A DNA stretch of 38,390 nt from Nanobdellota archaeon (lineage in GTDB: Archaea > Nanobdellota > Nanobdellia > Pacearchaeales > GW2011-AR1): assembly GCA_030640395.1 (NCBI GenBank), contig DAOWJK010000011.1:1-38390 (forward strand), in the 5' to 3' direction. The position numbers were made by a program, and so were the translations under genes. Shown piece after piece: positions 9,084 through 34,616 of the stretch. The number at the start of each line of letters is the position of its first letter. Within the stretch, counting starts at the first letter, position 1. The notes under the pieces are model-generated. The model had not been told where the DNA came from. It ran no database searches and saw only the letters and a list, made by a program, of their open reading frames with translations.

Positions 9084-9697
9084 ATCTTCTCCTTCAACTT
9101 CCCAATCTTCCTCCAACTCTTCTTCAACTTCTTATTACTTTCTTTAACAATTATCTTCAAAAATTTATCATCAACTAGAATTTTATTTTTTTCAATAATT
9201 GGAAACTCTAATTTTTCTGTACTATTCAATTCAGCAACAAATCTATTTCTCGTCGCTATTATCCCGGACCTCTTCCAACCAGCCAACTTTGCTTTATTTA
9301 AAAAAGATTGAGCATCATCCAAACTATCACAAGCAACATGTAAAATACAAGGTTCAGATTTAAATTTTATGCCCTTAGTAAACATTTTCTGGGAAAATGT
9401 TTCGGGGTACACACGAAGTGTGTTTATTCTTTTTTCCTTTTTAACAATCTCATTCAAATCCTTTTTCAACTTATTAAAACTAATCATCTCATGATAAACT
9501 TTCAAAAACAAACCTTTTTCTTTTTTATCCTGATTAATCATTAAAACAATCCTTCCAGAACACGAAGAAGTCGTGTAAAAATTCTCAAGAGAATTTATCT
9601 TCTTACATAAAGAAATTATTTTTTCATCCCATTTCTTTTTAGAAGATTTATCTAATTTAGAAAGAATAGATTTTTTTCGTTGAAGGAAATTATTCAT
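9080..9697 (-). CDS. taw3: tRNA wybutosine/wyosine-synthesizing protein 3 (Taw3/TYW3 methyltransferase)
   Basis: 205 aa. N-terminal F..RK..IL..LD.S.K...DE.I..L...IN....FYTTSSCSGRI is the TYW3 signature. Carries an in-frame element copy. Confidence 0.75.
   Translation of the reverse strand: MNNFLQRKKSILSKLDKSSKKKWDEKIISLCKKINSLENFYTTSSCSGRIVLMINQDKKEKGLFLKVYHEMISFNKLKKDLNEIVKKEKRINTLRVYPETFSQKMFTKGIKFKSEPCILHVACDSLDDAQSFLNKAKLAGWKRSGIIATRNRFVAELNSTEKLEFPIIEKNKILVDDKFLKIIVKESNKKLKKSWRKIGKLKEKI
9370..9423 (-). repeat. in-frame two-hairpin element, copy 1 (in taw3)
   Basis: + strand: TGCCCTTAGT-AAACATTTT-ctggg-AAAATGTTT-CGGGGTAC-ACACAC-gaa-GTGTGT. Stems at 9380-9388/9394-9402 and 9409-9414/9418-9423. 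Translated as NTLRVYPETFSQKMFTKG. Confidence 0.75.
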
Positions 9698-9730
9698 AAG
9701 ATTTAAATAAATTCAAAACTATTAAAACTT

Positions 9731-10315
9731 ATGGAAAAACCAATAATTGCGACAAATATTGACGGACTTTTAATAGAACATTCTGCATTTATAGAACCAC
9801 ATAGAAAATGGTTTGAAAGAGCAATAGAAAAAACAGGAGATGAATCCTTAAGAAAATATATTGGAGCAGACCCTTATTTCCCGGGTGTGAATATTGCCAT
9901 GGAAAAAATTATGCCAGATGCTACACCAGAACAAAGAACAGCACAAGCAAGAACATGGTATCAGGAAGATGTTATTAAATATATAAAAGAACATCCGGAA
10001 ATAATTAAAAAAAATGTGGCAGAAAAATTAAAAGCATTAAAAGAAAAATACAAATTAATTCTTTTAACAACAAACACTCAAGATTATATAAACAAGATAA
10101 TTGAAGTTTCACATCTTCATGGAATTTACGACGACATAATTGCGAGCAATACAGAAAAAGAACCAGACAGAGAAGAATTAATAAAAGAACTAAAAGAACA
10201 ATACCAACAACCAAAATATTATTTTACTGGGAAAGAAGACCAAAAAACAATTACAAGATTTGAAAGTTTAGGAATAAAAATAATTACAAAAGAAAATATT
10301 GATGAGATAAAATAG
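9731..10315 (+). CDS. HAD-like hydrolase-fold protein (weak call)
   Basis: 194 aa. IATNIDGLL resembles HAD motif I but with Asn in place of the first Asp. LILLTTNT resembles motif II. Confidence 0.35.
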   Translation: MEKPIIATNIDGLLIEHSAFIEPHRKWFERAIEKTGDESLRKYIGADPYFPGVNIAMEKIMPDATPEQRTAQARTWYQEDVIKYIKEHPEIIKKNVAEKLKALKEKYKLILLTTNTQDYINKIIEVSHLHGIYDDIIASNTEKEPDREELIKELKEQYQQPKYYFTGKEDQKTITRFESLGIKIITKENIDEIK

Positions 10316-10352
10316 TTCTGTGAAGATAAATAGCAGGGGTTTTAGAAAATGA

Positions 10353-11072
10353 TTAATGGTAAAGTTCACCTAATGTACAATCCATATCCACAATTTTTTC
10401 TCCGTAAACCCATTTAAAATCCAATTCAGTTCTAACCACTTTTTCAATAATTTTTTCTGGAATTCCTTTAATTTGTTCTGCAACGAATTCGTCTAAAGGT
10501 GCTTTCTGAGTATGTTCAGGCCATTGATTATATTCACACAATAAATTAAGCCCATTAATAGCATACCGATTTTTTAAATCACATTGCTCTAAAGGATTAT
10601 CTTCTTGTAGCCACTCATAAGCTCTTTGAAGTTGTGTAACAAATACCTTATCCCAAAATTGCTGAAGGGTTTTCCCCCAAAATGGAGGGAAAAACAACTT
10701 TTCTAAAATCCCAAATTTCTTTTCCGGATGATTCTCGTAATATCTTGCTTGATTCCATGCTTTGAACATAAATGCTAATTTCTCCGCCCCAATACCTATT
10801 TTTGCAATCTGATAATCTGCCCTAAATAAAACTTTATTTATATTAATATTAGCTTTTGCTACAGGATAATCAGAAGGTTTGGAAAGTAATACTTTGGGGG
10901 CAAAAATCGGTTTATATTTGTCATCTAAAACCTCTCTTGAATAAAGAACTCTTTCAATAAGTTCCCGAGAAGGAGCTCTAACATAAAAATTAGTTCTGTC
11001 ACCATTACCAATAAAATTATCAATCCTTTCCCTTACTTTCTCTTTATCTATCTGAGTTTCTAATTTTTCCAT
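10353..11072 (-). CDS. hypothetical protein
   Basis: 239-aa ORF with normal-looking composition. No motif recognised. Confidence 0.45.
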   Translation of the reverse strand: MEKLETQIDKEKVRERIDNFIGNGDRTNFYVRAPSRELIERVLYSREVLDDKYKPIFAPKVLLSKPSDYPVAKANININKVLFRADYQIAKIGIGAEKLAFMFKAWNQARYYENHPEKKFGILEKLFFPPFWGKTLQQFWDKVFVTQLQRAYEWLQEDNPLEQCDLKNRYAINGLNLLCEYNQWPEHTQKAPLDEFVAEQIKGIPEKIIEKVVRTELDFKWVYGEKIVDMDCTLGELYH

Positions 11073-11167
11073 ATAATCTAATAAGAATAATAGTTTATAA
11101 TTATTAGTAGTCCATAAATGTCGACTAAATAGTTAAATTTATAAGAGAGATTATCAATTAAATAATT

Positions 11168-11950
11168 ATGGAAAATAAGATAACAACGCTCTTAGAAGAG
11201 TATGGTCTTGATAAAAAAGAAATTAAGATATATTTATTATTAGTTGAAAAAGGAGAACTAAATGCATATAGTTTAGCAAAAATCACAGGAATTCATAGAT
11301 CCACTACCTATGCCGTACTTGAGAGACTTCTCTCAAAAGGATTTATCAACAGAATTCAGAAAGATGAAAAAACATTTTACTCTGCTTTTGAAATCACTCA
11401 AACAATAACTAAAATAAAAGAAAAAGAATCAATACTTTTATCTCTTATCCCAGAATTTGAAAAAGTGCGAGAAGAAGGCATATCAAAAGTAAGAGTATTG
11501 GAAAGTAAAGAAAGTCAAAAACAATTTAATTTTAATTTATTTAATCAAATAAGTAAAGGAATAATTAAAGAATTGTATATTATTAGTGGGGGGTCTTCAG
11601 ATACAATAAATATTGGAAAAGAATCTTCAGAAAATTTAAGCTCAGAAATATTTTTAGAAAGTTTATTAAGAGAAATAAAAAGAAAAAAGATCCATAAGAA
11701 AATAAAATATAAAGGAATATGGAATGAAAAATTTAAAAGAAGTAAAATTTTAAAATTATTCTCGGAATTAGGGAAAAATAAATTTCTTGAAAAACTCCCA
11801 ACTTTAGCAACAACAGTTATTTTTGGGGAGTATCTTGTATACCTTTTCACAATGAATGGAGTTCCACAAGTAATAGAAATTCAAAATAAACTAATTGCAG
11901 AAGAAAATAAATTTTATTTTTCTTATCTATGGAAACAGGCTAAACCTTAA
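11168..11950 (+). CDS. TrmB family transcriptional regulator
   Basis: 260 aa. N-terminal winged helix L..YGL.KKEIKIYLLLVEKGELNAYSLAKITGIHRSTTYAVLERLLSKGFI is typical TrmB. Confidence 0.75.
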   Translation: MENKITTLLEEYGLDKKEIKIYLLLVEKGELNAYSLAKITGIHRSTTYAVLERLLSKGFINRIQKDEKTFYSAFEITQTITKIKEKESILLSLIPEFEKVREEGISKVRVLESKESQKQFNFNLFNQISKGIIKELYIISGGSSDTINIGKESSENLSSEIFLESLLREIKRKKIHKKIKYKGIWNEKFKRSKILKLFSELGKNKFLEKLPTLATTVIFGEYLVYLFTMNGVPQVIEIQNKLIAEENKFYFSYLWKQAKP

Positions 11951-11990
11951 AAAATTAGGAACAAAAATAATCATAAAAAAGATATTGACC

Positions 11991-12707
11991 CTATTCTTTC
12001 TCCAAAATTTTACAATTAATATTTTCTTCTTCACACAACTCACAAAATTCCCTGGCATCATCCTCGCTTCCAACAATACTCCCCCAGTGCATTGGAATCG
12101 CCAAATCAGGTTTAATCAACTTCGCAGCCTCAACAGCTTCCTCTGCACTCATTGTGAACCTGCCCCCAATAGGCAGCAAAGCAACCAATTTCCTGCCCTG
12201 CTGTTTATAACCTGTAAGCTTTTGCATCTCAGGAATAACATCTGTGTCCCCTGCATGATAAATAAGAACACTATTTATTTTTATGAGATATCCTACCCAA
12301 CCCTCTTCCTTAGGATGAAAATGCTTGTCAATATTATACGCCGGCAAAACAGAAATCTTCGTGTTCCCAAAAACCAACTCATGCCCTGGCTCAACAACCT
12401 CCAGCTTAATCAGCACATCAAACCGCACAATCTTGCTCTGGCAATCAGCAGTCAAAAAAATTTTTGTCCCTTCTTTAATAATTTTCTTAATGTCAGCAAC
12501 ACTGCAATGGTCATAATGGCTGTGAGTTATTAAAATCAAATCTGCCTTCTCAGAATCATCTTTGATATTATAAGGGTCAATATAAATCACCTTGCCCTTA
12601 GTAGAAATCTTCATAGAAGATTTATCGGGGTACGCCTGTGGTGTTGAATTCTTGATCAAAAATCCTGCATGCCCTAACCATTTAAGTTCAATATCATTTA
12701 TTTTCAT
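11991..12707 (-). CDS. metallo-beta-lactamase fold hydrolase (UPF0173-like)
   Basis: 238 aa. LKWLGHAGFLI, ITHSHYDH (HxHxDH) and IPMHWG motifs. Carries an in-frame element copy near the N-terminus. Confidence 0.8.
   Translation of the reverse strand: MKINDIELKWLGHAGFLIKNSTPQAYPDKSSMKISTKGKVIYIDPYNIKDDSEKADLILITHSHYDHCSVADIKKIIKEGTKIFLTADCQSKIVRFDVLIKLEVVEPGHELVFGNTKISVLPAYNIDKHFHPKEEGWVGYLIKINSVLIYHAGDTDVIPEMQKLTGYKQQGRKLVALLPIGGRFTMSAEEAVEAAKLIKPDLAIPMHWGSIVGSEDDAREFCELCEEENINCKILEKE
12592..12645 (-). repeat. in-frame two-hairpin element, copy 2 (in MBL hydrolase)
   Basis: + strand: TTGCCCTTAGTAG-AAATCTTC-atag-GAAGATTT-ATCGGGGTAC-GCC-tgt-GGTGT. Inner stem at 12605-12612/12617-12624. Translated as STPQAYPDKSSMKISTKG, inserted between LIKN and KVIYIDP. 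Confidence 0.7.
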
Positions 12708-12798
12708 AAAAAAGAAAATTTGAGGAAGTTTTTAAAGATTTTGGGGTTATTTATTTAATGACAATAATTCTTATAAATGAAAGAATATTACAATTGAT

Positions 12799-13083
12799 AT
12801 GAAATCACTTGAAGATTTTAAGATAGAGTGTCCAGCATCATGGAAAGGGTTTGGACCAGGATGGAGGACAGTAGCAGTTATTTATTTTTTTGATAATGAT
12901 GGGAGAGGTTTAAGTAAGAAAGAGTTAAGTGAAAAAATAGAATTAAATGACGATGAATTAAAGAGAGGATTAGGAGCGATGCAACAAACAAATGAAATAT
13001 TATTTAGAGAAAATGCCACTGGAAGAAGATATTATTTAGAACCTAAAACAAGAGAAGCATTTAAAGGACTTTATAATCTTTAA
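12799..13083 (+). CDS. hypothetical protein
   Basis: 94-aa ORF; possibly winged-helix-like. No firm motif. Confidence 0.35.
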   Translation: MKSLEDFKIECPASWKGFGPGWRTVAVIYFFDNDGRGLSKKELSEKIELNDDELKRGLGAMQQTNEILFRENATGRRYYLEPKTREAFKGLYNL

Positions 13084-13112
13084 TTATTCAAGACTATTTT
13101 TTTCCCACTCAG

Positions 13113-13778
13113 CTATTGACTAGACTTTGAAAGATTGTGGCACTGATTGGTAATTTTATTAAGAGTTAATTTTTCATCCATAAATATTTCGTATATTTTT
13201 TTTACATTTTGGAGTTTTTTATAAGTGTTTTCCATTCTTCTTTTCAGTAATAAAAATTCTTCTTTTAGGTTCTCTAAATATACTTCTTTGTTATCTTCTT
13301 TTATTTCTTGGTCATCTAAAATCCACAGAAAAACAGAGATTACACCTTTCCTGCTTTTCAAAATACTTAAATCACTCTCAGGAATTTGATTAGCAGAATA
13401 ATGACAAAATTCGCTAATATATCTATTAACTTCTTCACTTTTGGGAATTATTTTTTTGAACTTGTTTCTTGTAATTTGATAACTTCTACCGAACTCAATT
13501 ATTTCTTTTTCTAATTTATTTAGTAGCTGTGGTGCTTTGGGGGTTAAACCAACTTTTTTGAAATCCTCTGTATACATTATTAAATTATCCCTCATCCTAC
13601 TTGTTTCTCCTTTTCCAAATAATTCTACTATTGAATCTATGCTCTCTTCTAAATTATGTTTGTCCCACTCCTCTCCAAATCCTTTTTGTTGTGTTTCTTT
13701 TAGAGCTTTTTCTAAATTAATTAGAGACCCATAGCTTTCATGGATTACTTCACGATATTCTTCTTGCATTTTAATCAC
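13113..13778 (-). CDS. hypothetical protein
   Basis: 221-aa charged helical ORF. No motif recognised. Confidence 0.4.
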   Translation of the reverse strand: MIKMQEEYREVIHESYGSLINLEKALKETQQKGFGEEWDKHNLEESIDSIVELFGKGETSRMRDNLIMYTEDFKKVGLTPKAPQLLNKLEKEIIEFGRSYQITRNKFKKIIPKSEEVNRYISEFCHYSANQIPESDLSILKSRKGVISVFLWILDDQEIKEDNKEVYLENLKEEFLLLKRRMENTYKKLQNVKKIYEIFMDEKLTLNKITNQCHNLSKSSQ

Positions 13779-13927
13779 ATAAATTTTTAATTTATAAATC
13801 TTTTTACTCAGGGGCTCTGTTAAAAAAGTTCTTAGAGAAAAGTAAATAATCCCTGAAAACCACTCTTTAAAACTAAAAAAAGAAAAACTAAAAAAATCTT
13901 TGATAAAAAAACATTTATAATCTTTAA

Positions 13928-14428
13928 TTATTCAAAACTATTTTTTTCCCACTCCCCCATCTTCCCAGTTTTCAACTTTTTATCCAAAATCTCCAACTCT
14001 TCATAAATCCCTTCAATCAGCTCATAATTTTTTGCCTCTTCCAAACTAACCCATTTATATTCTGTTAAGGCGTGGCAAAGTTTAACATCTTCCCCAACTG
14101 GCTCTGCCCACAAACTAATTATTAACGAAGGAATATTATCTGAACGAATATAAACCAAACTCGTAACATAATTAAGATTTTTAATCTCCAATCCAACTTC
14201 TTCCATGACCTCTCTTTTGCTCAAATCCTCTAAAACATTATACCAGTGAGAAGAAGTGTCTTTTTCCCTTAAAGCATAATCCAAAACTTCCAACTTGCCC
14301 CCAGGCACAGTCCATTTTCCAGGAAATGCTTTTTCATAATCCGCCCTTTTCGCAATTAAAAATTTTCCGTCCTTAACTAAAATCACAGTAGAAGTAATAT
14401 AATGTGCTTGATTTTTATCGTATTTCAT
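13928..14428 (-). CDS. NUDIX hydrolase
   Basis: 166 aa. Nudix box elements GGKLE ... REVMEEVGLEI, with a longer than usual spacer between the GG and RE parts. Confidence 0.7.
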   Translation of the reverse strand: MKYDKNQAHYITSTVILVKDGKFLIAKRADYEKAFPGKWTVPGGKLEVLDYALREKDTSSHWYNVLEDLSKREVMEEVGLEIKNLNYVTSLVYIRSDNIPSLIISLWAEPVGEDVKLCHALTEYKWVSLEEAKNYELIEGIYEELEILDKKLKTGKMGEWEKNSFE

Positions 14429-14469: not shown

Positions 14470-15879
14470 TTACTGCAACTTCTCAACTGCCTTCGCAATC
14501 CTCAACATCTTTTCATCTTCAAACTTGTCACAAGCAACCTGCATCCCAACAGGAATTCCATCAATCTTTCCAATCGGCAAACTCAGCGCACAATTCCCAT
14601 ACAAATTATAAGGAATAGTTAAAGCATCATAAGCATACATATCCTCAACAGAAATACTCTCGCCAATCTTATGCGGCAGCTTCGGACAAACAGGAGAAAT
14701 AATGCAATCAACCTTTTCAAAAGCTTTTGCCAACTCTTTAGAAAAAAACTCCTTTGCAATCAAAGACTTATGATAATATCTTCCATGATGCTCTGCCTTG
14801 GAAATTTCACTCCCTCCTAAAATTCTTCTCATAACTTCTGGACCGCAAGCATCCTCAATTTTCTTCCCATACCTCCTGCCATCCAGTCTCCGGGTTGCAG
14901 AAAAAAACTCAACATAAACCAAAGGATAATAAGTCGCAACAGCCAACTCAAAATTAGAAATCTTTATCTTCCTAATCTCCCACCCATATTTTTCGCTGGC
15001 TTTTTTAATTCTCTCCCCAATCAAATCATCAATTCTCTTATCCCGAGACTCAAAATCCAAAACACCAACAACTAACTTCCTAGGAACTTTATTCAAGTTC
15101 TTCAAATCAATTTTCTTGCCCCGTAATGCAGCCTCGTCAGAGGTTCTCGTGCCCTCTTTGGGTATACTTTGGGGTACACCAGGCGGTGTGCTTTCCTGAG
15201 AAATAGAATCTTTCTCATCTTTGCCATAAATCACACTTAACAACAAACCAGCATCTAAAACATTTTTTGCAATAGGTCCAATCTGATCTAAACTCATAGA
15301 AAGATCAATTAAACCATAACGAGAAACAGATGAATAAGTTGGCTTCACTCCAACAACTCCGCAGTGCGACGCAGGATTTCTTATGCTCCCTCCAGTGTCA
15401 GAACCCAAAGCCATGTCGCAAAAACCCGCAGCCACAGCAGCCACACTACCCGACGACGAACCTCCAGGAACAAAACCAAAAGCAGCAGGATTTTTCGTCG
15501 CACCAAAAGCACTTGTCTCACCAGAACTCCCGCACGCAAACTCATCACAATTTGCCATTCCCAAAATAATCCCTCCCTGGTCTTTAATCTTCTTAATCAC
15601 AGTTGCATCATAACCTGCCTTATAATTCTCCAAAACTTTAGAACCACACGAAGCATGCAAACCCTTAACATTAATATTTGCCTTCACAGCAATAACTTTC
15701 CCGGCAAGTTTTGCCCCAGCATTCAGTACTTTGGGGTACACCGAGCGGTGCCCAGATTTATTTTTTTTCGCTTCTTGCAAAGCATTTGGATTCATTTCTA
15801 AAATCGCATTTATTTTTTTCCCTTTTTTATTATTTGCTTCAATTTCTTTCAAGTAGTTTTTTAGTTTTTCTGTGTTCAT
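14470..15879 (-). CDS. gatA: Asp-tRNA(Asn)/Glu-tRNA(Gln) amidotransferase subunit A
   Basis: 469 aa. Amidase signature GGSSSGSVAAVAAG...GSDTGGSIRNPASHCGVVGVKPTY..VSRYGLI...SLDQIGP. Carries two in-frame element copies. Confidence 0.9.
   Translation of the reverse strand: MNTEKLKNYLKEIEANNKKGKKINAILEMNPNALQEAKKNKSGHRSVYPKVLNAGAKLAGKVIAVKANINVKGLHASCGSKVLENYKAGYDATVIKKIKDQGGIILGMANCDEFACGSSGETSAFGATKNPAAFGFVPGGSSSGSVAAVAAGFCDMALGSDTGGSIRNPASHCGVVGVKPTYSSVSRYGLIDLSMSLDQIGPIAKNVLDAGLLLSVIYGKDEKDSISQESTPPGVPQSIPKEGTRTSDEAALRGKKIDLKNLNKVPRKLVVGVLDFESRDKRIDDLIGERIKKASEKYGWEIRKIKISNFELAVATYYPLVYVEFFSATRRLDGRRYGKKIEDACGPEVMRRILGGSEISKAEHHGRYYHKSLIAKEFFSKELAKAFEKVDCIISPVCPKLPHKIGESISVEDMYAYDALTIPYNLYGNCALSLPIGKIDGIPVGMQVACDKFEDEKMLRIAKAVEKLQ
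15116..15191 (-). repeat. in-frame two-hairpin element, copy 3 (gatA, long variant with nested extra hairpin)
   Basis: + strand: TTGCCCCGTAAT-[GCAGCCTCGTCAGAGGTTCTCGTGCCCTCTTTGGGTA]-TACTTTGGGGTACACC-aggc-GGTGTGC. The ends match copy 7 exactly; the bracketed stretch of about 36 nt is extra. Translated as STPPGVPQSIPKEGTRTSDEAALRGK. Confidence 0.75.
15711..15752 (-). repeat. in-frame two-hairpin element, copy 4 (gatA N-terminal region)
   Basis: + strand: TTGCCCCAGCATTCAGTACTTTGGGGTACACC-gagc-GGTGCC. 22/24 identity to the 24-mer core of copies 3 and 7. Read in a different frame: GHRSVYPKVLNAG. Confidence 0.7.
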
Positions 15880-17176: not shown

Positions 17177-17440
17177 TCATTGCCATGACTTCCTCTCCCC
17201 AATAATAAAATCTTTATTTTTATTCGGTGCATTCTCAAACATAATTTTCCTAAACTCATTATCACACTTTTCTCCCTCACCTTCTTCTCTTTCTCCTTTG
17301 TCTCTCTCAATCAAAGGCTCTGCCATTTTCTTATCAATCTTAGAAAGCTTTTTAGAAAAACTATCCATTATTTTTTTTGCCTGCTCTTTAATTTCTTGTT
17401 TTTCTTTTTCAGAAACCTTGTGCCATAAAAAATCTGCCAT
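17177..17440 (-). CDS. gatC: GatC-like amidotransferase subunit C (tentative)
   Basis: 87 aa. Size, an acidic central loop and the C-terminal ..F..ENAP.....F....K pattern resemble GatC. Lies in the same co-directional string as aspS and gatA. Confidence 0.45.
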   Translation of the reverse strand: MADFLWHKVSEKEKQEIKEQAKKIMDSFSKKLSKIDKKMAEPLIERDKGEREEGEGEKCDNEFRKIMFENAPNKNKDFIIGERKSWQ

Positions 17441-21560: not shown

Positions 21561-23036
21561 TCATTCCAAAAACCTCTTTATAATCCCCATCGCCTCTCTC
21601 CCATCAACTTTCCCGGCAAACTTCTTCATTACCAATCCCATGTAAGCTTTCTCAGAAAGCCCGGGCTTGCCCTTGATAATTTTCATGATTTTTTCCTCAA
21701 CATTTCCTAAATCTGCTTTTTCAAACTTGACCGCACTGCTAACATCAACTCCCCTGGCAATTCTCTCTAAACTTTCCTTTATCTGCCTCTCGCTAATTTT
21801 CCCTTTTTTATATTTCTCCAAAACAAATGCAAGAATATCTTTGTTGCCCTCTATGTTTATATCTCCTTTCATAGAGGGTACACCCTTGGGTGCTGAAATA
21901 TTTTTAATCTTCCGCGCAATCTCTTTCGGAAATATCAAAACCACTTTCGCAATTAATTTTGGGTTGCTCACAATCTCCAGCAACTCCCTAAACTCCCCAA
22001 GTTTATTCATTTTGAAAATCAACTTTATCATCTCATGATTTAATCCCTTGCTGCTCAGTTCCTCTTCAATATCTTTTCTCAATCTGGGAAGATTCTTCTT
22101 AACTTTATTAATTAAATCTCTGGAAATCCTCAGCATCGGTAAATCAGTTTCAGGATACATCCTCGCTGAACCAGGCAGAGGTCTCAAAAAACTCGTGGTT
22201 GTGTCAGGATTTCCTCTCCGAACTTCTGCAACAGACTTTTTCTTTTTAACTAAATCAACCTGCCTTTCAATTTCGTTATTAATCGTAGGAACAATTAATT
22301 TTAAATTCTGAACACCTTTCATCTCAATTCTCTTCCCATTCTTAATAGAAATACTAACATCCTGCCGAATCGTGCCAATTCCCCGACGAACTCTGCAACT
22401 TCTCAAAATCTCCCCAATCTTCAGGCTGACATTCCTGGCCTGTTCAGGAGTTTTAATATCCGGAGCAGTCACAATTTCAACAAGAGGAATCCCCAACCTG
22501 TCCAGCCGATAAATTGTTTCGTCATCTTTTCGCTCCACAATCCTCGCAGCATCTTCCTCAAGAATCACGGCATTAATTCCAACTCTTCCTTCATCTGTCT
22601 CAACATAGCCATCCTGCGCAATTAAAACAGTCCTCTGAAAACCCGAAGTATTTGAACCATCAATAACAGTTTTTCTCATAATTTGTGTTATCGGAACAAT
22701 CTTGCAATTCAGCAAAAGCGAAATCTGCAAGGCAATCTCCAGCGCATCCTTATTTATCTCATGCGGCGGCTCCTCATCCAACTCAACAAGACAAGTTGTA
22801 TCATACCCCTGATAAACAAATTGCTTATCTTTTCCCATCTCATGTTTCGCCGCAACATCAACCTCTCCAGACTCTCCTGCAACAGCATGAAGTTTTCTCC
22901 TCACAATAAAATCAGGCTCGTCTTTCCTTAACAGCGACAGACAATTACAAAATAATTTTTTAGTGTCAAGTTGCTGATGAATCTCAAGCCCGCATTTAAA
23001 TCCTAATTTTTCGTAATCTAATTTTTCTTTTGACAT
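21561..23036 (-). CDS. gatE: Glu-tRNA(Gln) amidotransferase subunit E
   Basis: 491 aa. N-terminus LGFKCGLEIHQQLDTKKLFCNC, plus VDGSNTSGFQRT and RQDVSISI motifs of GatE. Shorter than typical GatE. Carries an in-frame element copy. Confidence 0.85.
   Translation of the reverse strand: MSKEKLDYEKLGFKCGLEIHQQLDTKKLFCNCLSLLRKDEPDFIVRRKLHAVAGESGEVDVAAKHEMGKDKQFVYQGYDTTCLVELDEEPPHEINKDALEIALQISLLLNCKIVPITQIMRKTVIDGSNTSGFQRTVLIAQDGYVETDEGRVGINAVILEEDAARIVERKDDETIYRLDRLGIPLVEIVTAPDIKTPEQARNVSLKIGEILRSCRVRRGIGTIRQDVSISIKNGKRIEMKGVQNLKLIVPTINNEIERQVDLVKKKKSVAEVRRGNPDTTTSFLRPLPGSARMYPETDLPMLRISRDLINKVKKNLPRLRKDIEEELSSKGLNHEMIKLIFKMNKLGEFRELLEIVSNPKLIAKVVLIFPKEIARKIKNISAPKGVPSMKGDINIEGNKDILAFVLEKYKKGKISERQIKESLERIARGVDVSSAVKFEKADLGNVEEKIMKIIKGKPGLSEKAYMGLVMKKFAGKVDGREAMGIIKRFLE
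21844..21893 (-). repeat. in-frame two-hairpin element, copy 5 (in gatE)
   Basis: + strand: TTG-CCCTCTATG-tttatatctccttt-CATAGAGGG-TACACCC-tt-GGGTGC. 9-bp stem at 21847-21855/21870-21878. 48/50 identical to copy 6. Translated as APKGVPSMKGDINIEGN. Confidence 0.8.
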
Positions 23037-24943: not shown

Positions 24944-26221
24944 TCACATCTCCAACCTATCACTCAACTCTCCAGCAAAATTTTCTAACATTTTTTCTCT
25001 AACAATTTTTTTATCCTTTGCCCAGTCTGCGTGACCCAAAACCCAGCCAAGTTTTATCAAGGCTGTTTCACTTAACATATCCTCTAAATAAATAATTCCT
25101 GTTTTCATCAGCTCTCTTCCATTAGAATAAACCAACGGGTCAAGCCGCCCATAAATTGTCTGGGCAGCAGCGCAAACAACCAAACCTTTTTCCTGAACCT
25201 GTTTAAGTTTTTTTATCCAGCTATTTCTTGCACGTTTTGTCGGAGCATGTCCAAGACCACTCATCTCCAAAACAATGCCCCTGTATTTTTTCTTCAAATA
25301 AAAATCCAAAATATCCGGCTCTTGCCCGGGATAAATCTTAACCAAAGCAACTTTCTCCTCAAACTTTAAATCCAGCTTAACTTTCTTGCCTTTAGTTGTA
25401 CGAATATTATAATCTGAAATTTTATCAATTCTTTCAGGAAAAATTTTAGCAAAAGGTTTTGCATTTACAACTTTAAAAGCGTCTCTTTTTGAAGTATGCA
25501 TTTTCCTGACTTTTGTTCCGGGCATTGCATAACAAAAATCATCATTTGAAGACCCATGCCCAACAAGCATGACTTCTGCAATATCTGAAATCGCGGCCAA
25601 CGCAGCACACTGCAAATTCAAATTCGCGTCGCTGCTTGCCCTGTCAATACTTCTCTGAGAATAAGTCAAAACAACCGGCTTGTTCAAATTCTCCAAAAAA
25701 AAACTCAACGCCGCAGAAGTATAATGCAAAAAATCAGTTCCATGCGTGACAATCACTCCTTTAATGCTCGGCTCATTCAAAAGTTTCTTAGCACTTCGGG
25801 CAAGTTTCTGCCAGTCCTTGAAATCCATGTCCTCTGACGCTTTCATAAACGGCACCTCAACTTTCACAATATTAACTTTGCCAAAAACACCTGGATAAAA
25901 CTTAAACAAACTCTCAGGAGTATCAAGCCAGTCAACACCTCCTTTCTTCGGATTCAGCCGGGCAGCAATTGTCCCCCCAGTAATAATCATCGCAACATTC
26001 GGTTTATTTTTATCTTTTTTTATCTCAATTTCTTCTTTCTTCTCTAAACCTTTTTCAACAACCTTAATCTCCAAAACATCTTTTTTATTAAATCCAATAT
26101 TATAACCAGAATCCAGTTTAAGCAAAATAATTCCGGGTTCAGGGTTTTCTAAAAGAACTCCCTCATAAATCTGCCTTGTTAAATGAACTCCAACATAATC
26201 CCCGGCAACAGCATTTTTCAT
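24944..26221 (-). CDS. gatD: Glu-tRNA(Gln) amidotransferase subunit D
   Basis: 425 aa. N-terminal AD domain, then asparaginase-type motifs ITGGTIA and VTHGTD. Confidence 0.9.
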   Translation of the reverse strand: MKNAVAGDYVGVHLTRQIYEGVLLENPEPGIILLKLDSGYNIGFNKKDVLEIKVVEKGLEKKEEIEIKKDKNKPNVAMIITGGTIAARLNPKKGGVDWLDTPESLFKFYPGVFGKVNIVKVEVPFMKASEDMDFKDWQKLARSAKKLLNEPSIKGVIVTHGTDFLHYTSAALSFFLENLNKPVVLTYSQRSIDRASSDANLNLQCAALAAISDIAEVMLVGHGSSNDDFCYAMPGTKVRKMHTSKRDAFKVVNAKPFAKIFPERIDKISDYNIRTTKGKKVKLDLKFEEKVALVKIYPGQEPDILDFYLKKKYRGIVLEMSGLGHAPTKRARNSWIKKLKQVQEKGLVVCAAAQTIYGRLDPLVYSNGRELMKTGIIYLEDMLSETALIKLGWVLGHADWAKDKKIVREKMLENFAGELSDRLEM

Positions 26222-26757: not shown

Positions 26758-28113
26758 ATGACAAAAATTGGATTAGAAATTCATGGTTATCTTTTAACAA
26801 ATGAAAAACTCTTCTGTGCTTGCAAATCAGAACACGGGCTAAAACATTCAAAACCGAACACAAATATCTGTGCTATTTGCACAGCCCAGCCAGGGGCAAA
26901 GCCAATGCTCCCAAATAAAACAGCCGTAAATAAAGTAATCCAAATTGCGTTAATTCTTGGATGCAAAATAAACGAAAAACTTGTATGGGCCAGGAAACAT
27001 TATGACTGGCCTGACCTGCCAAAAGGATATCAAAACACAATTTCTGGAGCTTATGCAATTCCTGTCGGAGAAAAAGGAAAATTTTTAGGAATACGAATTA
27101 CCGAGGCGCATCTTGAAGAAGACCCTGCAGCATGGAACCCAAAAACAGGGGAAATAGATTACAATCGTTCCGGAAGCCCTTTAATAGAAATTGTAACAGA
27201 ACCAGATTTTAAAAATTCCGAACAAGTAATTTCATGGCTAAAACAATTGCTCACAACTCTAAGTTACATAAAAGCCATTGACAAAAATCTGGGAATAAAA
27301 GCAGATGTAAATGTCTCTGTTTCAGGAGGAGCAAGAATTGAGATTAAAAACATAAACAGTCTGAAAAACATCAAAACAGCAATTGAATATGAGCTCCAAA
27401 AACAAAAAAAACAGCTTCCTAAAGTTCAGGAAACAAAAATGTTTGATGAAAGCAAAGCCATTACAATAAAAATGCGTTCAAAAGAACAAGCCCAGGATTA
27501 CAGATTTATTTCAGACCCGGACTTGCCGATAATAAAAATTGAAAAATCAAGAGTAGAAAAAATAAAATCTGCTTTGCCCGAAACTCCGTCAGAAAAACTA
27601 AAAAAGATTGTTAAAAAATATAAAATAGAAAAAACTTCAGCAGAAACTTTAACAAAAAAATTAGAAATTGTGGAGTTCTTTGAAAAAATAATTGAAAAAG
27701 CAAATCCAAAACTTGCAGTTCGTTGGGTAACTGAAGAACTTCTTAGTGTCCTGAATTACAACAAAAAAGAATTAGAAGATGTTGAAATAAAACCAGAACA
27801 TTTTATTGAATTGCTCAAACTTATAGAAGATAAAACAATTACAGAACTAAAAGCAAAAGATATTTTACGAAGCTGGAAAGAGAAATCACTTTCCCCAAAA
27901 CAAGAAATAAAAAAATTTTCTCAAATTTCAGACAAAAAAGAAATTCAAAAACTTGCTCAAAAAGTTATTAAAGAAAATTCAAAAGCAGTTGAAGATTACA
28001 AGTCAGGGAAAAAACAATCTTTGAATTTCTTAATTGGACAGGTAATGAGAGCAAGTGATAAGAGGGCTGATTTTGAAATGGCGAGAGATGTTTTGGTTAA
28101 AGAATTGGAATAA
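26758..28113 (+). CDS. gatB: Asp-tRNA(Asn)/Glu-tRNA(Gln) amidotransferase subunit B
   Basis: 451 aa. GLEIHGYL, PNTNICAICTAQPGAKP, EAHLEEDP and NRSG.PLIEIVTEPD motifs of GatB. C-terminal YqeY-like tail (LIGQVM). Confidence 0.9.
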   Translation: MTKIGLEIHGYLLTNEKLFCACKSEHGLKHSKPNTNICAICTAQPGAKPMLPNKTAVNKVIQIALILGCKINEKLVWARKHYDWPDLPKGYQNTISGAYAIPVGEKGKFLGIRITEAHLEEDPAAWNPKTGEIDYNRSGSPLIEIVTEPDFKNSEQVISWLKQLLTTLSYIKAIDKNLGIKADVNVSVSGGARIEIKNINSLKNIKTAIEYELQKQKKQLPKVQETKMFDESKAITIKMRSKEQAQDYRFISDPDLPIIKIEKSRVEKIKSALPETPSEKLKKIVKKYKIEKTSAETLTKKLEIVEFFEKIIEKANPKLAVRWVTEELLSVLNYNKKELEDVEIKPEHFIELLKLIEDKTITELKAKDILRSWKEKSLSPKQEIKKFSQISDKKEIQKLAQKVIKENSKAVEDYKSGKKQSLNFLIGQVMRASDKRADFEMARDVLVKELE

Positions 28114-28268: not shown

Positions 28269-29252
28269 TTAATTAGCAGTGCATTGACAATCTTGATAAC
28301 TATCAGACTTGGCTGATCCAATTAGCCCTGCAGGGCCCATACTCGCAGTACCGCAAATCAGAGATTCTTCGCACGAATTTACATATTTTGTAAAATGTTG
28401 TGTTTTAAAACAAATTACACCATATTCATTCCAAATAGTACGATATTGCCCGCCCGGAGATGTAAATTCGCCAAATGGTCCTGACATAGAATACCAATCA
28501 GTGCTACAAGCACCATAATGATGTGATACATAATTTATTCTCGCGTAGTATTGTCCATTTTCAAATTTTCCACTAAATGATCCTGACACAGGATATGAAC
28601 CCGCTCCTATACAAGAACAACTTATTATGCATGGTTGAATATTACAACTCTGCGACTCTGTAGAAGAGCCAGAGCAAGTTGCTCCCCCGCATTCTGGAGC
28701 AGGATTTGTACAGGTTCTTGTTCTTGTTTGAGTTCCACCGCCACACGAAACAGAACAAGCACTCCAGCCAGACCATGCACTCCATCCTCCATCTACAGGA
28801 ACACAACCAAACTCCCCTCCATTAATTGCATCTTGTAAACTCATTTCAGAACCGTCTACAGAAATTAAAATCTCGTCTGCACTATGCCCAAAAACTATAT
28901 TAGAATTATATGAGGATGAAACACTTCCGTATAACGAAGAATCAATTGCCTGTTGCAAATTCATCTCATTGCCATTAACAGAAACATAAATATCATTTCC
29001 AGTATGATAAGCTCCTGAAATTTCTGTTGTGTAGTCCTGTGTTGGAGATGGAGCACCCTCAACAAGAAAACCATTATCTATTGCCTCCTGCAAAGTCATT
29101 GTAAAACCATCTACAGAAACCAAAACAGCGTCGCATCCATGCCCGGGATTTGGAATTTGTTGAGTATATTCATATGCAATAATAATGCCCACTATTAACA
29201 AAACTACCGCTATTGAAATAAAAATTATTTTATTAGAAAATTTATTCACCAT
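28269..29252 (-). CDS. secreted protein with three short tandem repeats and one thrombospondin type 1 (TSP1/TSR) repeat
   Basis: 327 aa. N-terminal TM/signal segment. Three VS(V)DG.(E)M.LQ.AI repeats. Then [52 protein letters not shown], the canonical WSxW...CSxxCGxGxxxRxRxC TSR pattern. Visibly higher G+C than its neighbours. Confidence 0.7.
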
Positions 29253-29300
29253 TTTTATATTATTCTATTAAAAAAACAGGATTTATAAATTTTACTTAAA

Positions 29301-29372: not shown

Positions 29373-29473
29373 TGATACAACAAGAAAAAAAAGGTTTTTA
29401 TAGTTTAGGATTTTAATTAAAATATAAAAAAGAAGATGAAACAATCAATTAAATTAAACAGGATTGCCCTTGT

Positions 29474-29643: not shown

Positions 29644-29646
29644 GAA

Positions 29647-30507: not shown

Positions 30508-30584
30508 TAAGAGCAAGATTTTACAAATCTTCCACTACAACTTTTTCTAAAAAAAGTTATAAACCCTTTTTCCTTTAAACAATT

Positions 30585-32030: not shown

Positions 32031-32407
32031 CAAAAACCTCTTCTTCTTTATATTAAACTATTCATTACTAATAATTGAATTAAGCTCGTCTTCTAATCTA
32101 AAAGTGATTTCCATCAAACGACTTAATTCTTCTTCTACAAATTTTTTCTCTGCCATGTTGTCTTCCATTTTTGGAATTTCCAATAAAAACAGAAATCTTC
32201 TCTAACCTAAATTAATTTAGAAATTATTCAACTTAATTCAGGCAAAAAAGAAAATCTGAATTAAATTGAAACAGGTTTAATTGTAGCATAGACTAAGCCA
32301 AATATGCAATTCTTCCAACTTGCAAATCTTAGTCTATCACTCATAACCTCCTTAAGAAAATAAGGTTTATAATATTTGTGTTAAAAAATAAGTTCTCCTT
32401 ATATCTT

Positions 32408-33541
32408 TCATAATCCCTTTTTGCCCTCTATGTTTATATCTCCTCTCATAGAGGGTACATCCTTGGGTGCCCTCTTCCCAACCAACTCAACAAACCTCTC
32501 CTTAAATTTCTCCAAATCCTTAACCTTGACTCTAACACCAACAGCCCTCTCATGCCCCCCGCCAGTCGCCCCTTCCAAATCCTTAATCACTTCCAAAACA
32601 ATTTCCCTGACATTATCTCCTCTGACAGAAATATTCACCTTGTCTCCTGAAACATAAATCACAACAATAATCTTCCCAGGAAATTCATACCTCAGCCCAT
32701 TTGACAAATCAGAACTAATGCTCAGCTCTCCTCCATACTGAAAAAACAAAACCCCCCCCTCATTTTTCTGGGACTTCGCCTTCTCCAGCAATTTTTCATA
32801 TTTCTCATTTATCTCTTTAAATTTTTTATACATAGTCTGGTTATATTTGCTCTCTTCCAAAACCTCATAAGGCGTCCTGACCTTCATCAAAAACTTCAAC
32901 ATATTTACCACATTAGTTGTTCTGTCTTTTAATCCCGCATTAAAAATTCTCCCAATCTTCCCTATCTGAGATTTAAAATAAATCTCTTTAACATTTTTAG
33001 AATCAATAATCAAGTCAGGATATTTTTCTTTAAACTCAAAATAAAAATCAGGAACAAAATGATCAGAAATGCACCCAACAACTGCTATCCACAAATCCTG
33101 TTTTCTGTTAGTTATCTGATAACACAAAGCTGTAACAGGTTCATTTGTTTTCTCTTTATTTAACAGAGGATTATAATAATTAACAAAATCAGGAATATCG
33201 CTATTCTCATGATGGTCAATCCACACCACCGGAAGATTAACCTGCCGAACCTCTTTCAAAAATTCCTCAGAAACAACATGCCTGTCCAAAATAAAAATAT
33301 AATCTGCATTTAGTTCCATGACTTTTTTAAAATAATTTCCCGCGTCCGCAGACTTCATCGCAACACCTTTTCCCCTTCCAATATATCTCTGCAGCAAAAG
33401 AAAACTACAAAGCCCGTCCCCGTCATTATCAAAAAAGAAAATCGGATTCTGTGCTTTTTCCAAATGCTCCTGAACTTCTAAAATTTGTTTTTGAGTTAGC
33501 ATTTTAATTAAAAGCAAATGTGATTTAAAAACCTTCAACAA
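32408..33541 (-). CDS. DHH/DHHA1 family phosphoesterase (RecJ-like)
   Basis: 377 aa. DNDGDG, IFILD, WIDHH and GGGHERAVG motifs. The last 20 or so residues are encoded by an element copy. Confidence 0.75.
   Translation of the reverse strand: MLKVFKSHLLLIKMLTQKQILEVQEHLEKAQNPIFFFDNDGDGLCSFLLLQRYIGRGKGVAMKSADAGNYFKKVMELNADYIFILDRHVVSEEFLKEVRQVNLPVVWIDHHENSDIPDFVNYYNPLLNKEKTNEPVTALCYQITNRKQDLWIAVVGCISDHFVPDFYFEFKEKYPDLIIDSKNVKEIYFKSQIGKIGRIFNAGLKDRTTNVVNMLKFLMKVRTPYEVLEESKYNQTMYKKFKEINEKYEKLLEKAKSQKNEGGVLFFQYGGELSISSDLSNGLRYEFPGKIIVVIYVSGDKVNISVRGDNVREIVLEVIKDLEGATGGGHERAVGVRVKVKDLEKFKERFVELVGKRAPKDVPSMRGDINIEGKKGL
32421..32470 (-). repeat. in-frame two-hairpin element, copy 6 (forms the C-terminus of the DHH protein)
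   Basis: + strand: TTG-CCCTCTATG-tttatatctcctct-CATAGAGGG-TACATCC-tt-GGGTGC. Stem at 32424-32432/32447-32455. Translated as APKDVPSMRGDINIEGK, followed only by KGL and the stop codon. Confidence 0.8.
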
Positions 33542-34616
33542 CTTCAGTTCCTAATTTCTTATATCCAAAAAAATCAGTTGTATAATTATAAGCCCCGGCA
33601 TTTAAAAAAACAATTTTATCCCCAACTTTTGGATTTTGCAATTTCACCTTATATCTAAAAATATCATCCCGCGTCGGGGAGTTTCCTTTAATTAAATAAA
33701 ATTTCCTGCCCCGTAATTCCGTACTTTGGGGTACACCAGGCGGTGCTGATTCATCATCCTCAAACTCTCCTTCAATAAGCATTTTTGTGCCAGTTAAAAT
33801 AGTGTCCAACGCACAATTATAAATCGTGGTATTAATCACAATATTGTTTTCCTGAATCTGAATAATTTCTGTCTTAAGTTTTATGCAAGGTGCAGCAAAA
33901 AATCTCCCTGGTTCAATATATGTTTCAATATTATATTCCTTTAAAAATTCTTTTGCATTTGTTATTTTTTTAAAAATATAAACCAGCACTTCTGAAACAT
34001 AACTCCGATATTTCGTCGGAAGCCCACCACCAATATTCAAAAAATCAATCCTCTCCAAACTTTCTTTTGTCAAAGAATCTTCTAACTCTTCTTTAATTTC
34101 CCACTCACTCGTATTTTGCGACTTTCTATGAATATGAACTCCAAGCTTTTCAATAAAAACATTATCTTTAATCCTCGCTATTATCTCGTTTATTTTTTTT
34201 GAAGCCATACCATAAACAAAATATTTCCCAGAACCAATCCTATGCTCCTGAAATTTCATTCTCAAAGAAAGATTAATTTTTATTTTTTCTTCTTCAATCA
34301 CATTCAAAACTCTCTCCAAATCAACTTCATTATCAACAACAAAATTTTTTATTCCCTTTTTTAAAATTTCTTTTAATTCTTCTTCTGGCTCTGCCTGAGT
34401 AAAAAACCAAATCCTTGACTTATCCTTAATCATATCTATTTCCTCTTTGGCATGAATTGAAAAATCACAATCAGAAATTTCCTGCAAAACATTTCCAACT
34501 TCCCTGTTGGTTTTATAAGAGTAAGAAATTTTTAATCCAAGATTTTTTAGAGTTTTTACTTGTTCTAAGAGTTTGGATTTTGAGAGGATGAATTTAGCTT
34601 CCATAACAAAAAACAA
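33525..34616 (-). CDS. type III PLP-dependent decarboxylase (Orn/DAP/Arg decarboxylase family 2)
   Basis: 363 aa. The PLP-lysine context SYSYKTN (compare YA.KAN) and NIGGGLP motifs. Overlaps the DHH gene start by 17 nt. Carries an in-frame element copy. Confidence 0.7.
   Translation of the reverse strand: MFFVMEAKFILSKSKLLEQVKTLKNLGLKISYSYKTNREVGNVLQEISDCDFSIHAKEEIDMIKDKSRIWFFTQAEPEEELKEILKKGIKNFVVDNEVDLERVLNVIEEEKIKINLSLRMKFQEHRIGSGKYFVYGMASKKINEIIARIKDNVFIEKLGVHIHRKSQNTSEWEIKEELEDSLTKESLERIDFLNIGGGLPTKYRSYVSEVLVYIFKKITNAKEFLKEYNIETYIEPGRFFAAPCIKLKTEIIQIQENNIVINTTIYNCALDTILTGTKMLIEGEFEDDESAPPGVPQSTELRGRKFYLIKGNSPTRDDIFRYKVKLQNPKVGDKIVFLNAGAYNYTTDFFGYKKLGTEVVEGF
33707..33746 (-). repeat. in-frame two-hairpin element, copy 7 (in PLP decarboxylase)
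   Basis: + strand: TGCCCC-GTA-attccg-TAC-ttt-GGGG-TACACC-aggc-GGTGC. The 24-mer at 33722-33745 is identical to 15165-15188. Translated as APPGVPQSTELRG. Confidence 0.8.

Follow-up and report, generated by a model that had tools for sequence, protein, structure and literature searches.

A 38,390-nt stretch of a Nanobdellota archaeal genome, here called the window, raises the question of why seven similar GC-rich, two-hairpin sequences lie in six unrelated housekeeping genes. An earlier note made from the sequence alone proposed that they are nucleotide elements inserted in frame, like the Rickettsia palindromic elements (RPEs). The seven-copy observation was confirmed as real, and this lead interpretation is supported. 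The family is probably a non-autonomous, translated, selfish mobile DNA element of Pacearchaeota/Woesearchaeota-type (DPANN) archaea, best read by analogy as an archaeal, much smaller counterpart of RPEs and mitochondrial GC clusters.

A covariance model (R1), whose training alignment included six of the seven copies but not gatA site a, was run over the window with filters off. It recovered exactly seven copies, all on the minus strand, scoring 29-51 bits with E-values from 7e-13 to 9e-7; the best match beyond them had an E-value of about 2. Because the search finds exactly these seven, the intergenic DNA and plus-strand genes of the window contain no copy, as the earlier note had reported. 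GGGTACRC is present 6 times where 0.23 occurrences are expected, and GCACCNNNNGGTGTACCC with at most 3 mismatches 6 times where 0.20 are expected; neither observed count was reached in any of 100 shuffles. The common layout exists at all seven sites. The 24-mer at 15165-15188 is indeed identical to that at 33722-33745 and matches 15727-15750 at 22/24 positions, and 48 of 50 positions agree between the gatE and DHH copies. The description of GC-rich islands in AT-rich DNA also holds (43-60% GC in the elements, 26-40% in the flanks).

Table 1. Element copies in the window, with boundaries refined by comparing filled sites with empty orthologous sites
Host gene	Position	Strand	Length and type	Coding	Score (bits)
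TYW3/taw3	9371..9424	-	54 nt, type C-like	encodes NTLRVYPETFSQKMFTKG	37.2
MBL-fold hydrolase	12594..12644	-	51 nt, subfamily C'	encodes TPQAYPDKSSMKISTKG	40
gatA site a	15118..15189	-	72 nt, composite	encodes TPPGVPQSIPKEGTRTSDEAALRG	29
gatA site b	15713..15751	-	39 nt, type A	read as HRSVYPKVLNAG	45.5
gatE	21846..21893	-	48 nt, type B	encodes APKGVPSMKGDINIEG	50.7
DHH/DHHA1	32423..32470	-	48 nt, type B	gene 3' end	46
PLP-dependent decarboxylase	33708..33746	-	39 nt, type A	encodes APPGVPQSTELRG	42

In mRNA sense, the element reads GCACC-N4-GGTGT-A-CCC(C), then a variable hairpin or module, then GGG(G)C. The conserved 5' module consists of the 5-bp hairpin GCACC-N4-GGTGT and the ACCC after it; the second module is variable, usually palindromic and closed by GGG(G)C. 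Types A, B, C, C' and D were distinguished, with a family size range of 30-72 nt and no terminal inverted repeats. The 5' module of the C' copy in the MBL gene is ACACCACAGGCGTACCCC, and the gatA site-a copy consists of a type A element with a 33-nt internal module at 15132-15164. The taw3 copy has ACACAC/GTGTGT as hairpin 1 and AAACATTTTC/GAAAATGTTT as hairpin 2; the gatE copy has z = -4.1. The stems are maintained through compensatory changes. In hairpin 2 these affect 7 of 14 pairs, a number reached in 0 of 500 shuffles, and hairpin 1 shows the variants GCTCC/GGAGT, CGCC/GGCG, GCCCC/GGGGT, GCACT/AGTGT and ACACAC/GTGTGT. The 28 long stems are near-perfect palindromes, with one mismatch in total.

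Each of the seven window copies has a length divisible by three and a sense frame free of stops; the predicted frame-0 peptide is Pro/Gly-rich and hydrophilic, typically of the form A-P-x-G-V-P...G. The six host identities were confirmed as TYW3/Taw3, an MBL-fold hydrolase, GatA, GatE (above the NCBIfam cut-off), a DHH/DHHA1 protein and an Orn/DAP-type PLP decarboxylase. The copies lie inside genes as had been claimed, but the DHH copy forms a C-terminal extension, APKDVPSMRGDINIEG KKGL*, and its orthologues end about 20 codons earlier. The second reading frame described in the earlier note stands in part: gatA site b is a true phase-1 insertion, within a GGA codon, but in the MBL and apparently the taw3 variants the core is shifted internally and both ends are in phase 0. 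In a predicted GatA model, both inserts (residues 44-53 and 228-254) lack secondary structure and score below 50 in pLDDT; the model is only moderate overall (mean pLDDT 75.9) and has further low-confidence segments.

The earlier note had suggested aligning the host proteins with orthologues, and in related Pacearchaeota/Woesearchaeota genomes the inserts are missing from orthologues and have sharp boundaries. The taw3 copy is absent from L132, L113 and L129, and the gatE orthologues have no copy. The MBL site is empty in most orthologues (AAT TCT/AAG, the slash marking the insertion point); where the window has a C' copy, L129, L083, L113 and L057 have a 30-nt type D copy, and L130 carries a double copy, one nested in the other. 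At gatA site a, the relative P0002/L173 (84% by BLASTP, 88% in the alignment) has a plain 39-nt element, and orthologues at 78-80% identity are empty (CAG GAA AGT/GAA AAA). Site b holds a 33-nt version in L129 and no copy in other orthologues. For gatA, type A is found in the window and P0002 and C' in five other homologues, and 30 of 50 are empty. At the decarboxylase position, L052 (69% identical) lacks the insertion and L025 carries an element of type C. Insertion is precise, with copies lying directly 5' of an A-rich triplet (AAR), and the termini are identical across unrelated sites. The empty/filled pairs compared showed neither target-site duplication nor microhomology of element ends with empty sites. 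One GCCT-loop variant occurs at gatA site a and in the decarboxylase gene of the window as well as in the gatA copy of the close relative P0002, and is absent from the metagenome copies among the matches listed. This sharing, the 48/50 identity across unrelated genes, the nesting in L130 and the internal module of the gatA site-a copy are signs of recent activity. In-situ decay is also seen, as GTATCC in L129 and GATGTACCA in L143. That several lineages use exactly the same codon boundary could go back to old insertions, later lost precisely or exchanged for another type, rather than to independent hits. The window encodes no transposase, integrase or reverse transcriptase, so it is from such comparative patterns that the element appears to be mobile.

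The family is widely distributed. A metagenome scan gave at least 120 loci; about 100 of the matches listed lie on contigs with 26-38% GC that come from dozens of datasets, and 108 non-redundant copies in AT-rich contigs are among those listed. The hosts among these matches are core archaeal genes, including rpS3, P0, ThrRS, LeuRS, MetRS, Cbf5, DHS, GatD, TYW1 and RadB. The search pattern was strict, fixing hairpin 1 and the 3' GGGCA, so the conservation of both in this set is uninformative. Reference genomes gave 5-6 copies in 638 kb from 44 genomes; the distribution is therefore patchy. Positions within host proteins are not conserved, and tails and intergenic DNA are included. The RPE-like reading thus gains from orthologues without inserts, abundance of the family elsewhere and covarying stems. 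The suggestion that such elements were undescribed in archaea is also borne out: literature searches found no published description of the family, and an Rfam search returned zero matching families.

Among the matches listed, 87 of 99 unique elements have lengths divisible by three, and 84 of 108 copies sit, in sense, within open frames 100 codons long or longer. Called genes contain 83 sense and 5 antisense copies of the 108 (p = 4e-11), against a baseline of 64.5% co-oriented neighbouring genes, which argues against the earlier suggestion that orientation might track replication. Stops are not the cause of this bias, because the antisense frames are equally open; nor is the AAR target, which favours sense over antisense by only 2:1 and is evenly spread over the codon phases. 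Most copies begin at a codon boundary, and 67 of the 84 coding copies listed (80%) share one reading frame, where openness alone predicts about 43%. Both the sense bias (17:1) and the phase-0 bias (80%) exceed the prediction for a neutral selfish element, and a role at the RNA or peptide level could be involved.

Host maintenance of some REP/BIME elements, with secondary spread, has been proposed. A similar explanation would make the present copies cis-acting hairpins in mRNA or DNA, maintained by the host as a protein-binding site, a mark for mRNA stability or processing, or a translational pause, and spread secondarily. The sense bias left unexplained by stops or target motif, the covariation of stems among distant copies, the retention of the 5' module across many environments and the enrichment of translation-related housekeeping genes as hosts are consistent with it. 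However, close orthologues lack copies with no visible compensation, copies decay in situ in L129 and L143, insertion points fall at non-conserved protein positions, in tails and in intergenic DNA, copy density differs greatly between related genomes, and Rfam has no matching family. Host function is therefore considered unlikely.

Spread without an element-specific enzyme, by template switching, short-patch gene conversion or repair synthesis at A-tract breaks, is considered very unlikely. It would fit the lack of target-site duplication in the pairs compared, of terminal inverted repeats and of an enzyme in the window, as well as the near-perfect palindromic stems and the shuffled and nested modules, as in yeast mitochondrial GC clusters (PMC4478555). 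Against it, the element ends share no microhomology with the empty sites, and the precise, identical termini and conserved 5' module suggest specific recognition. Selection of the peptide APxGVP...G as a linker, modification site or interaction motif, with nucleotide similarity as a by-product, could account for the shared frame and the Pro/Gly-rich, hydrophilic composition. Yet identical nucleotides are read in three frames to give unrelated peptides, some copies are intergenic, the rare codon CCC and synonymous positions in the hairpin-1 loop follow the subfamily, double substitutions preserve base pairing rather than the residue, and orthologues function without the insert, all of which make this highly improbable. 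Excision from RNA as mini-introns, for instance by the archaeal splicing endonuclease at a motif resembling a bulge-helix-bulge (BHB), leaving the protein unchanged, would require the observed sense orientation, and the decarboxylase copy can be drawn with a 3-nt bulge beside a 3-bp helix; this alternative from the earlier note is barely credible, since that feature occurs in only 1 of 41 type-A copies, coding copies keep lengths divisible by three and stop-free used frames, neither of which excision requires, copies of other lengths lie mostly outside long ORFs (those checked are intergenic and interrupt no gene), hairpin 1 pairs within itself, and the ends (GCACC..., ...GGGGC) form no BHB with each other or the flanks.

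The preferred reading, a selfish mobile element, can be compared with known systems. RPEs, as summarized in PMC10969869 from Ogata et al. (2000, 2002), are palindromic repeats of about 100-150 nt in frame in many housekeeping ORFs. They resemble the present family in occupying unrelated ORFs, in being apparently translated and tolerated at surface positions, in occurring also in non-coding DNA and in having no known transposase. A sequence relationship is not expected. The host here is a DPANN archaeon rather than an alphaproteobacterium, and the elements are shorter (30-72 nt) and modular, with a conserved hairpin and a swappable second one, a 17:1 sense bias among the matches listed and insertion 5' of AAR. 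Yeast GC clusters such as GC42 (PMC4478555) are likewise tiny (~26-80 nt) GC-rich hairpins of AT-rich compact genomes, with constrained stems, free loops and palindromic modules that merge and shuffle; the double-hairpin elements of Allomyces mtDNA (Paquin et al. 2000, as cited there) are listed alongside them. GC42 lies mostly between genes and has a duplicated AG target at its flanks (PMC4478555), whereas the present elements are mostly intragenic, of lengths divisible by three and sense-oriented, with no duplication in the pairs compared. MITEs (Sulfolobus SM, Correia, ERIC; PMC10969869) are also short, non-autonomous and multicopy, with occasional in-frame fusions, but the present elements are several times smaller than typical MITEs, lack terminal inverted repeats and a parent IS, and showed no target-site duplication in the pairs compared. 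They also reside in a cellular archaeal chromosome, unlike the organellar GC clusters.

REP/BIME elements and the palindrome-associated elements (PATEs) derived from IS200/IS605 are mobilized by Y1/HUH transposases. Like them, the present elements are based on hairpins rather than terminal inverted repeats, show no target-site duplication in the pairs compared, are strand-specific and insert beside a short motif, which on the complementary strand places insertion 3' of YTT. Neither tnpA nor RAYT was found among the genes of the window. In contrast to the extragenic REPs, the present elements are mostly intragenic; they also have two unlike hairpins, of which one alone is conserved, and an orientation that follows the gene rather than the replication fork.

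A course of events may be proposed in which element copies colonize the gene-dense, AT-rich genomes of DPANN archaea. The hairpins would be required for propagation, probably because a trans-acting enzyme recognizes them in single-stranded or extruded DNA; a tentative guess is that this activity is of the HUH/Y1 type, or similar, and works on the non-template strand of transcribed genes. Host mRNA would be translated straight through the insert, yielding junction peptides such as APPGVPQSTELR and GDINIEG. Copies would afterwards decay, nest in each other and shuffle modules. For the host, the result would be a short Pro/Gly-rich loop at a surface loop, linker or terminus, by which the protein is not destroyed.

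The seven sites described in the earlier note were each confirmed in the sequence, and its identity figures between copies proved exact; near-identical copies lie in unrelated genes. Read in mRNA sense, the copies of this repeat family share the layout (G)CACC-N4-GGTG-TA-CCC(C)-[variable part]-GGG(G)C-A, in which the CAC, GTACCC and GGGCA columns are invariant. The element core occurs 6 times in the window versus 0.2 times expected by shuffle comparison, and in a repeat finder the copies form three groups of two or three members (D5, D12 and D13). An earlier exact-motif census was replaced by a covariance model of the element (R1), since the exact motif missed decayed copies. Run on the window without filters, the model recovered the seven copies only, all on the minus strand, with nothing else below E ~2; six of the seven had been in its training alignment, the gatA site-a copy having been left out. 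The 30-nt type D copies were also left out of the model alignment; MAFFT misaligned them when all subfamilies were aligned together.

The window has a GC content of 32% and encodes aIF2-beta, aIF1A, FtsZ, TYW3, GatCAB, GatDE, AspRS, ProRS and deoxyhypusine synthase. It is a segment of an archaeal chromosome, and the MAGs closest to it bear the labels Pacearchaeota, Woesearchaeota or Nanoarchaeota. The contig and its close relative occur in the ZHAN22-2 metagenomes SAMN18200499 and SAMN18200500. Genes for both tRNA-dependent amidotransferases, GatCAB and GatDE, lie inside 14 kb, and GatE is unusually short (491 aa versus a model of ~620-630 positions, matched in two stretches). Two window proteins of this DPANN-type genome carry eukaryote-like, adhesive thrombospondin domains. 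An AT-rich repeat flanking an uncharacterised ORF might have arisen by duplication of an intergenic or promoter-terminator segment; alternatively, its two copies might mark the ends of a small inserted unit.

Element copies, Gat genes and other features of the window, and related features of other contigs (L-numbers); lengths of the window's element copies follow from empty-site boundaries
Feature	Coordinates	Length	Remarks
Element in taw3		54 nt	Absent from orthologues
Element in MBL hydrolase gene		51 nt	Empty site AAT TCT/AAG in most orthologues
Element in gatA, site a		72 nt	Absent from all orthologues at <=80% identity (CAG GAA AGT/GAA AAA)
Module within gatA site-a copy	15132-15164	33 nt	Hairpin AGAGG-GCACGAGAA-CCTCT
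Element in gatA, site b		39 nt	Inside GGA codon; shared only with L129 (closest reference genome), there 33 nt
Element in gatE		48 nt	Absent from orthologues
Element in DHH gene		48 nt	C-terminal tail; absent from orthologues
Element in PLP decarboxylase gene		39 nt	Type A; no insertion there in L052, type C copy there in L025
GatA	14470-15879		
GatC	17177-17440		
GatE	21561-23036		
GatD	24944-26221		
GatB	26758-28113		
Papain-family protease	5968-8562	864 aa	Thrombospondin type 3 repeat
Thrombospondin protein	28269-29252	327 aa	Thrombospondin type 1 domain
AT-rich repeat TTTATAATCTTTAATTATTCAAGACTATTTTTTTCCCACTC	13070-13110 and 13914-13954	41 nt	98% identity between copies
Uncharacterised ORF	13113-13778		Flanked by the AT-rich repeat
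MBL gene of L130	3552-4301		Nested C' elements
Element copies of L093	789-845 (-) and 1905-1962 (+)		Opposite orientations
Unrelated taw3 inserts	L139 16986-17091; L137 10137-10314		Example CCCACCCAACTCGYGAC...CGCTCGCCCACCCAAA, in two genomes
Unrelated gatA inserts	L131 10654-10744; L143 2685-2748; L152 10657-10777		

Each host gene was aligned with its orthologues from reference genomes and metagenomes, and these alignments display empty sites, bearing out the proposal that the sequences are in-frame inserts absent from orthologues. Presence varies even among close relatives. The relative P0002 (84% identity by BLASTP, 88% in the alignment) carries a plain 39-nt type A copy at exactly gatA site a, and the window copy corresponds to such an element with a 33-nt module inside it. 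The MBL junction AAT TCT/AAG is filled by a 30-nt copy in four lineages; in another two, a copy of 30 nt is located three codons upstream. In L130, a C' element sits in the hairpin-2 loop of another C' in the MBL gene, directly 5' of AAG, which shows self-nesting with unchanged target preference. No target-site duplication was found in any comparable pair of empty and filled sites; for example, AAT TCT/AAG became AAT TCT[GCACC...GGGGC]AAG with nothing duplicated. Terminal inverted repeats are likewise absent: the termini GCACC... and ...GGGGC are not mutual inverted repeats, and their pairing is internal. Among 50 close GatA homologues, the boundary after SQ(E/D)S (window ~15189/15190) is occupied in about 20 and empty in 30, the occupants being type A, type C' or composite elements, or unrelated inserts. 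Either insertions favour this boundary as a hotspot, or it is an old site that has seen repeated loss and replacement.

The module nested in the type A element at gatA site a is GC-rich (...TACCCAAAGAGG-GCACGAGAACC-TCTGACGAGG). Its AGAGG/CCTCT hairpin recurs in metagenome contigs L059, L066 and L088/L119, adjoining (G)TACCC units, and this recurrence points to a second family of elements, one that shuffles. In other lineages of Pacearchaeota and Woesearchaeota the same protein loops hold GC-rich inserts that are in frame but unrelated, so that there may be several families of such elements.

A scan of public metagenome contigs with one strict pattern yielded at least 120 loci. Among the matches listed, about 100 come from contigs with 26-38% GC, spread over dozens of datasets, a wide distribution. 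Overall the elements measure 30-72 nt, and recurring subfamilies have typical lengths of 39 nt (A), 48 nt (B), 51 nt (C), 30 nt (D) and 51 nt (C', which has a shifted core read TPQAYP...). Metagenome hosts identified by Pfam are the ribosomal proteins S3 and P0, LeuRS, MetRS, ThrRS (archaea-specific editing domain), Cbf5, deoxyhypusine synthase, GatD, TYW1 and RadB. The distribution is nevertheless patchy: across 44 reference genomes, with 638 kb surrounding gatA, R1 found only 5-6 copies, most of them in the nearest relatives of the window, compared with 7 in the 38 kb of the window itself. L176, a syntenic contig of 20 kb from another metagenome, carries five copies, part of them at the window's sites and part elsewhere. 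Seven hits in viral contigs, with no recurrent subfamily, were treated as probable chance; two near-identical viral contigs, L004 and L007, do carry the two-hairpin layout.

Of the two hairpins, only one is conserved. The metagenome search pattern fixed hairpin 1; copies independent of that pattern have the compensatory variants GCTCC/GGAGT, CGCC/GGCG, GCCCC/GGGGT and GCACT/AGTGT, and the taw3 copy of the window has another, ACACAC/GTGTGT. In hairpin 2 of twelve type C copies, 7 of 14 pairs show two-sided changes and 94.7% of cells are paired; this covariation was matched by none of 500 shuffles, and slid controls were 34-56% paired. The long stems are almost perfectly Watson-Crick and therefore distinguish neither the folding strand nor DNA from RNA. 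Use of G·U versus A·C pairs as a strand indicator favoured antisense for the whole element, but is confounded by base composition. Rfam gave no match at any element, even at E <= 5, and only two tRNAs reached the gathering score.

The elements are compatible with coding. Among the matches listed, 84 of the 108 non-redundant metagenome copies fall within sense frames that stay open for 100 codons or more, divided 67, 11 and 6 among the three frames; another 7 occupy antisense frames, and 17 are outside any long ORF. Length is a multiple of three in 87 of the 99 unique elements listed. Type C copies of other lengths (50, 52 and 53 nt) are mostly outside long ORFs, and those examined are intergenic and interrupt no gene. 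Such a pattern is predicted by translation through the element and not by RNA excision, which had been offered as an alternative and which the open host frames of the coding copies argue against. The bulge with a 3-bp helix on which that suggestion drew occurs in 1 of 41 type A copies, and a 4-bp helix in none of the 41; a bulge-helix-bulge or mini-intron reading was rejected, as the two ends of the element form no pairs across the junctions. The elements would be translated, with predicted junction peptides such as APPGVPQSTELR, GVPSMK and GDINIEGNK. In the AlphaFold model of the window GatA (mean pLDDT 75.9, built from an alignment of 50 sequences), the two inserted segments score below pLDDT 50 and form no secondary structure; other segments of the model are weak too. 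Insertion positions lean towards protein termini.

By a simple gene call, 83 copies among the matches listed are sense and 5 antisense. The remaining genes of these contigs share the element's orientation in only 64.5% of cases (binomial p = 4e-11), so orientation follows the host gene and not the direction of contig replication, contrary to a possibility raised earlier. One contig, L093, is the only one seen with copies in opposite orientations; one of its pair is sense inside a gene, and the other is 50 nt, not a multiple of three, and apparently intergenic. Stop codons were rejected as the cause of the sense bias, because antisense frames are open as often (68, 80 and 53 stop-free versus 74, 64 and 36 in sense, n = 87). 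In 79% of copies among the matches listed, AAR forms the 3' flank; the +1 A was fixed by the search pattern, yet A is also found in 7 of 7 window copies. Since it is present in empty sites, the triplet belongs to the target; it is a short motif, common in AT-rich coding DNA. As a cause of the orientation and phase biases it is insufficient alone, for AARR is only twice as frequent on the sense strand as on the antisense and is even across codon phases. The 17:1 sense bias and the 80% phase-0 bias therefore call for an extra cause. A strand-specific, transcription-linked insertion step might be responsible, or else selection for the peptide that the element encodes.

In-frame selfish DNA is known classically from Rickettsia. 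The palindromic elements of that genus are in-frame, palindromic and found in unrelated housekeeping genes (PMC10969869). The present elements share with them a repeated palindromic family (7 window copies, over 100 in metagenomes) whose hairpins fold and covary, and in-frame location in unrelated ORFs with absence from orthologues. The Rickettsia elements are ~100-150 nt long, whereas these are 30-72 nt and reside in a Pacearchaeota-like archaeon; on this comparison of features they are an analogue and not a member. Yeast mitochondrial GC clusters show 'merger and shuffling' of modules (PMC4478555). These clusters and the double-hairpin elements share GC-rich hairpins in an AT-rich genome, constrained stems and module shuffling, but GC42 has a flanking AG target duplication and an organellar host, whereas here no duplication was seen in the pairs compared and the host is an archaeal chromosome. 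The Rickettsia elements are the closest functional match and the mitochondrial GC clusters and double-hairpin elements the closest physical one; the element belongs to neither family. Hairpin elements of the IS200/IS605 type or mobilised by RAYT (PATE/REP) likewise have hairpins near the ends and no terminal inverted repeats or target-site duplication. They insert next to a fixed tetra- or pentanucleotide, to which the short AAR flank may or may not correspond. Classical MITEs have both terminal inverted repeats and target-site duplication, and neither is seen in the window elements. Archaeal bulge-helix-bulge introns have a BHB/BHL motif across their junctions, and their length and stop codons are unconstrained, neither of which holds here. 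No published description of the family turned up in non-exhaustive literature searches based on concepts and on sequence strings, in agreement with the earlier note, which knew of no archaeal equivalent.

The best-supported reading is that the family consists of non-autonomous, selfish, hairpin-dependent mini-elements that insert into genes. They would persist there through lengths in multiples of three, lack of stops and short flexible encoded loops, and they probably confer no benefit. No transposase, integrase or reverse transcriptase is encoded in the window, and no cognate Y1/HUH transposase gene is among its ORFs. As a low-confidence guess, a trans-acting, hairpin-specific (HUH/Y1-like) activity might act on single-stranded DNA exposed by transcription; insertion may instead pass through an RNA intermediate, or the elements may spread by template switching. 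The way these mini-elements are adapted to genes and confined almost wholly to the sense strand has a real chance of marking something more distinctive. Tentatively, they might represent a new class of ORF-dwelling mini-transposons adapted to the genes of reduced, gene-dense archaeal genomes, built as units of 3n length whose stop-free sense frames encode benign Pro/Gly loops, and inserted by a transcription-coupled or RNA-mediated step. Such insertion would explain why 94% of copies are sense despite equally open antisense frames, and the sense-strand bias makes it directly testable. The conserved 19-nt hairpin module offers a concrete target for finding the mobilising enzyme.

These findings place a Rickettsia-like in-frame strategy in archaea, where the elements are modular and much smaller and occupy essential genes from many environments, such as those for ribosomal proteins, aminoacyl-tRNA synthetases and amidotransferases. 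They bear on protein length variation in DPANN archaea and are a warning for indel-based phylogenetic markers of universal proteins, as well as a caution for gene callers and aligners. If the class of ORF-dwelling elements is real, it would be a major overlooked source of indels in DPANN universal proteins. The elements also suggest how genomes with almost no intergenic space still host mobile DNA.
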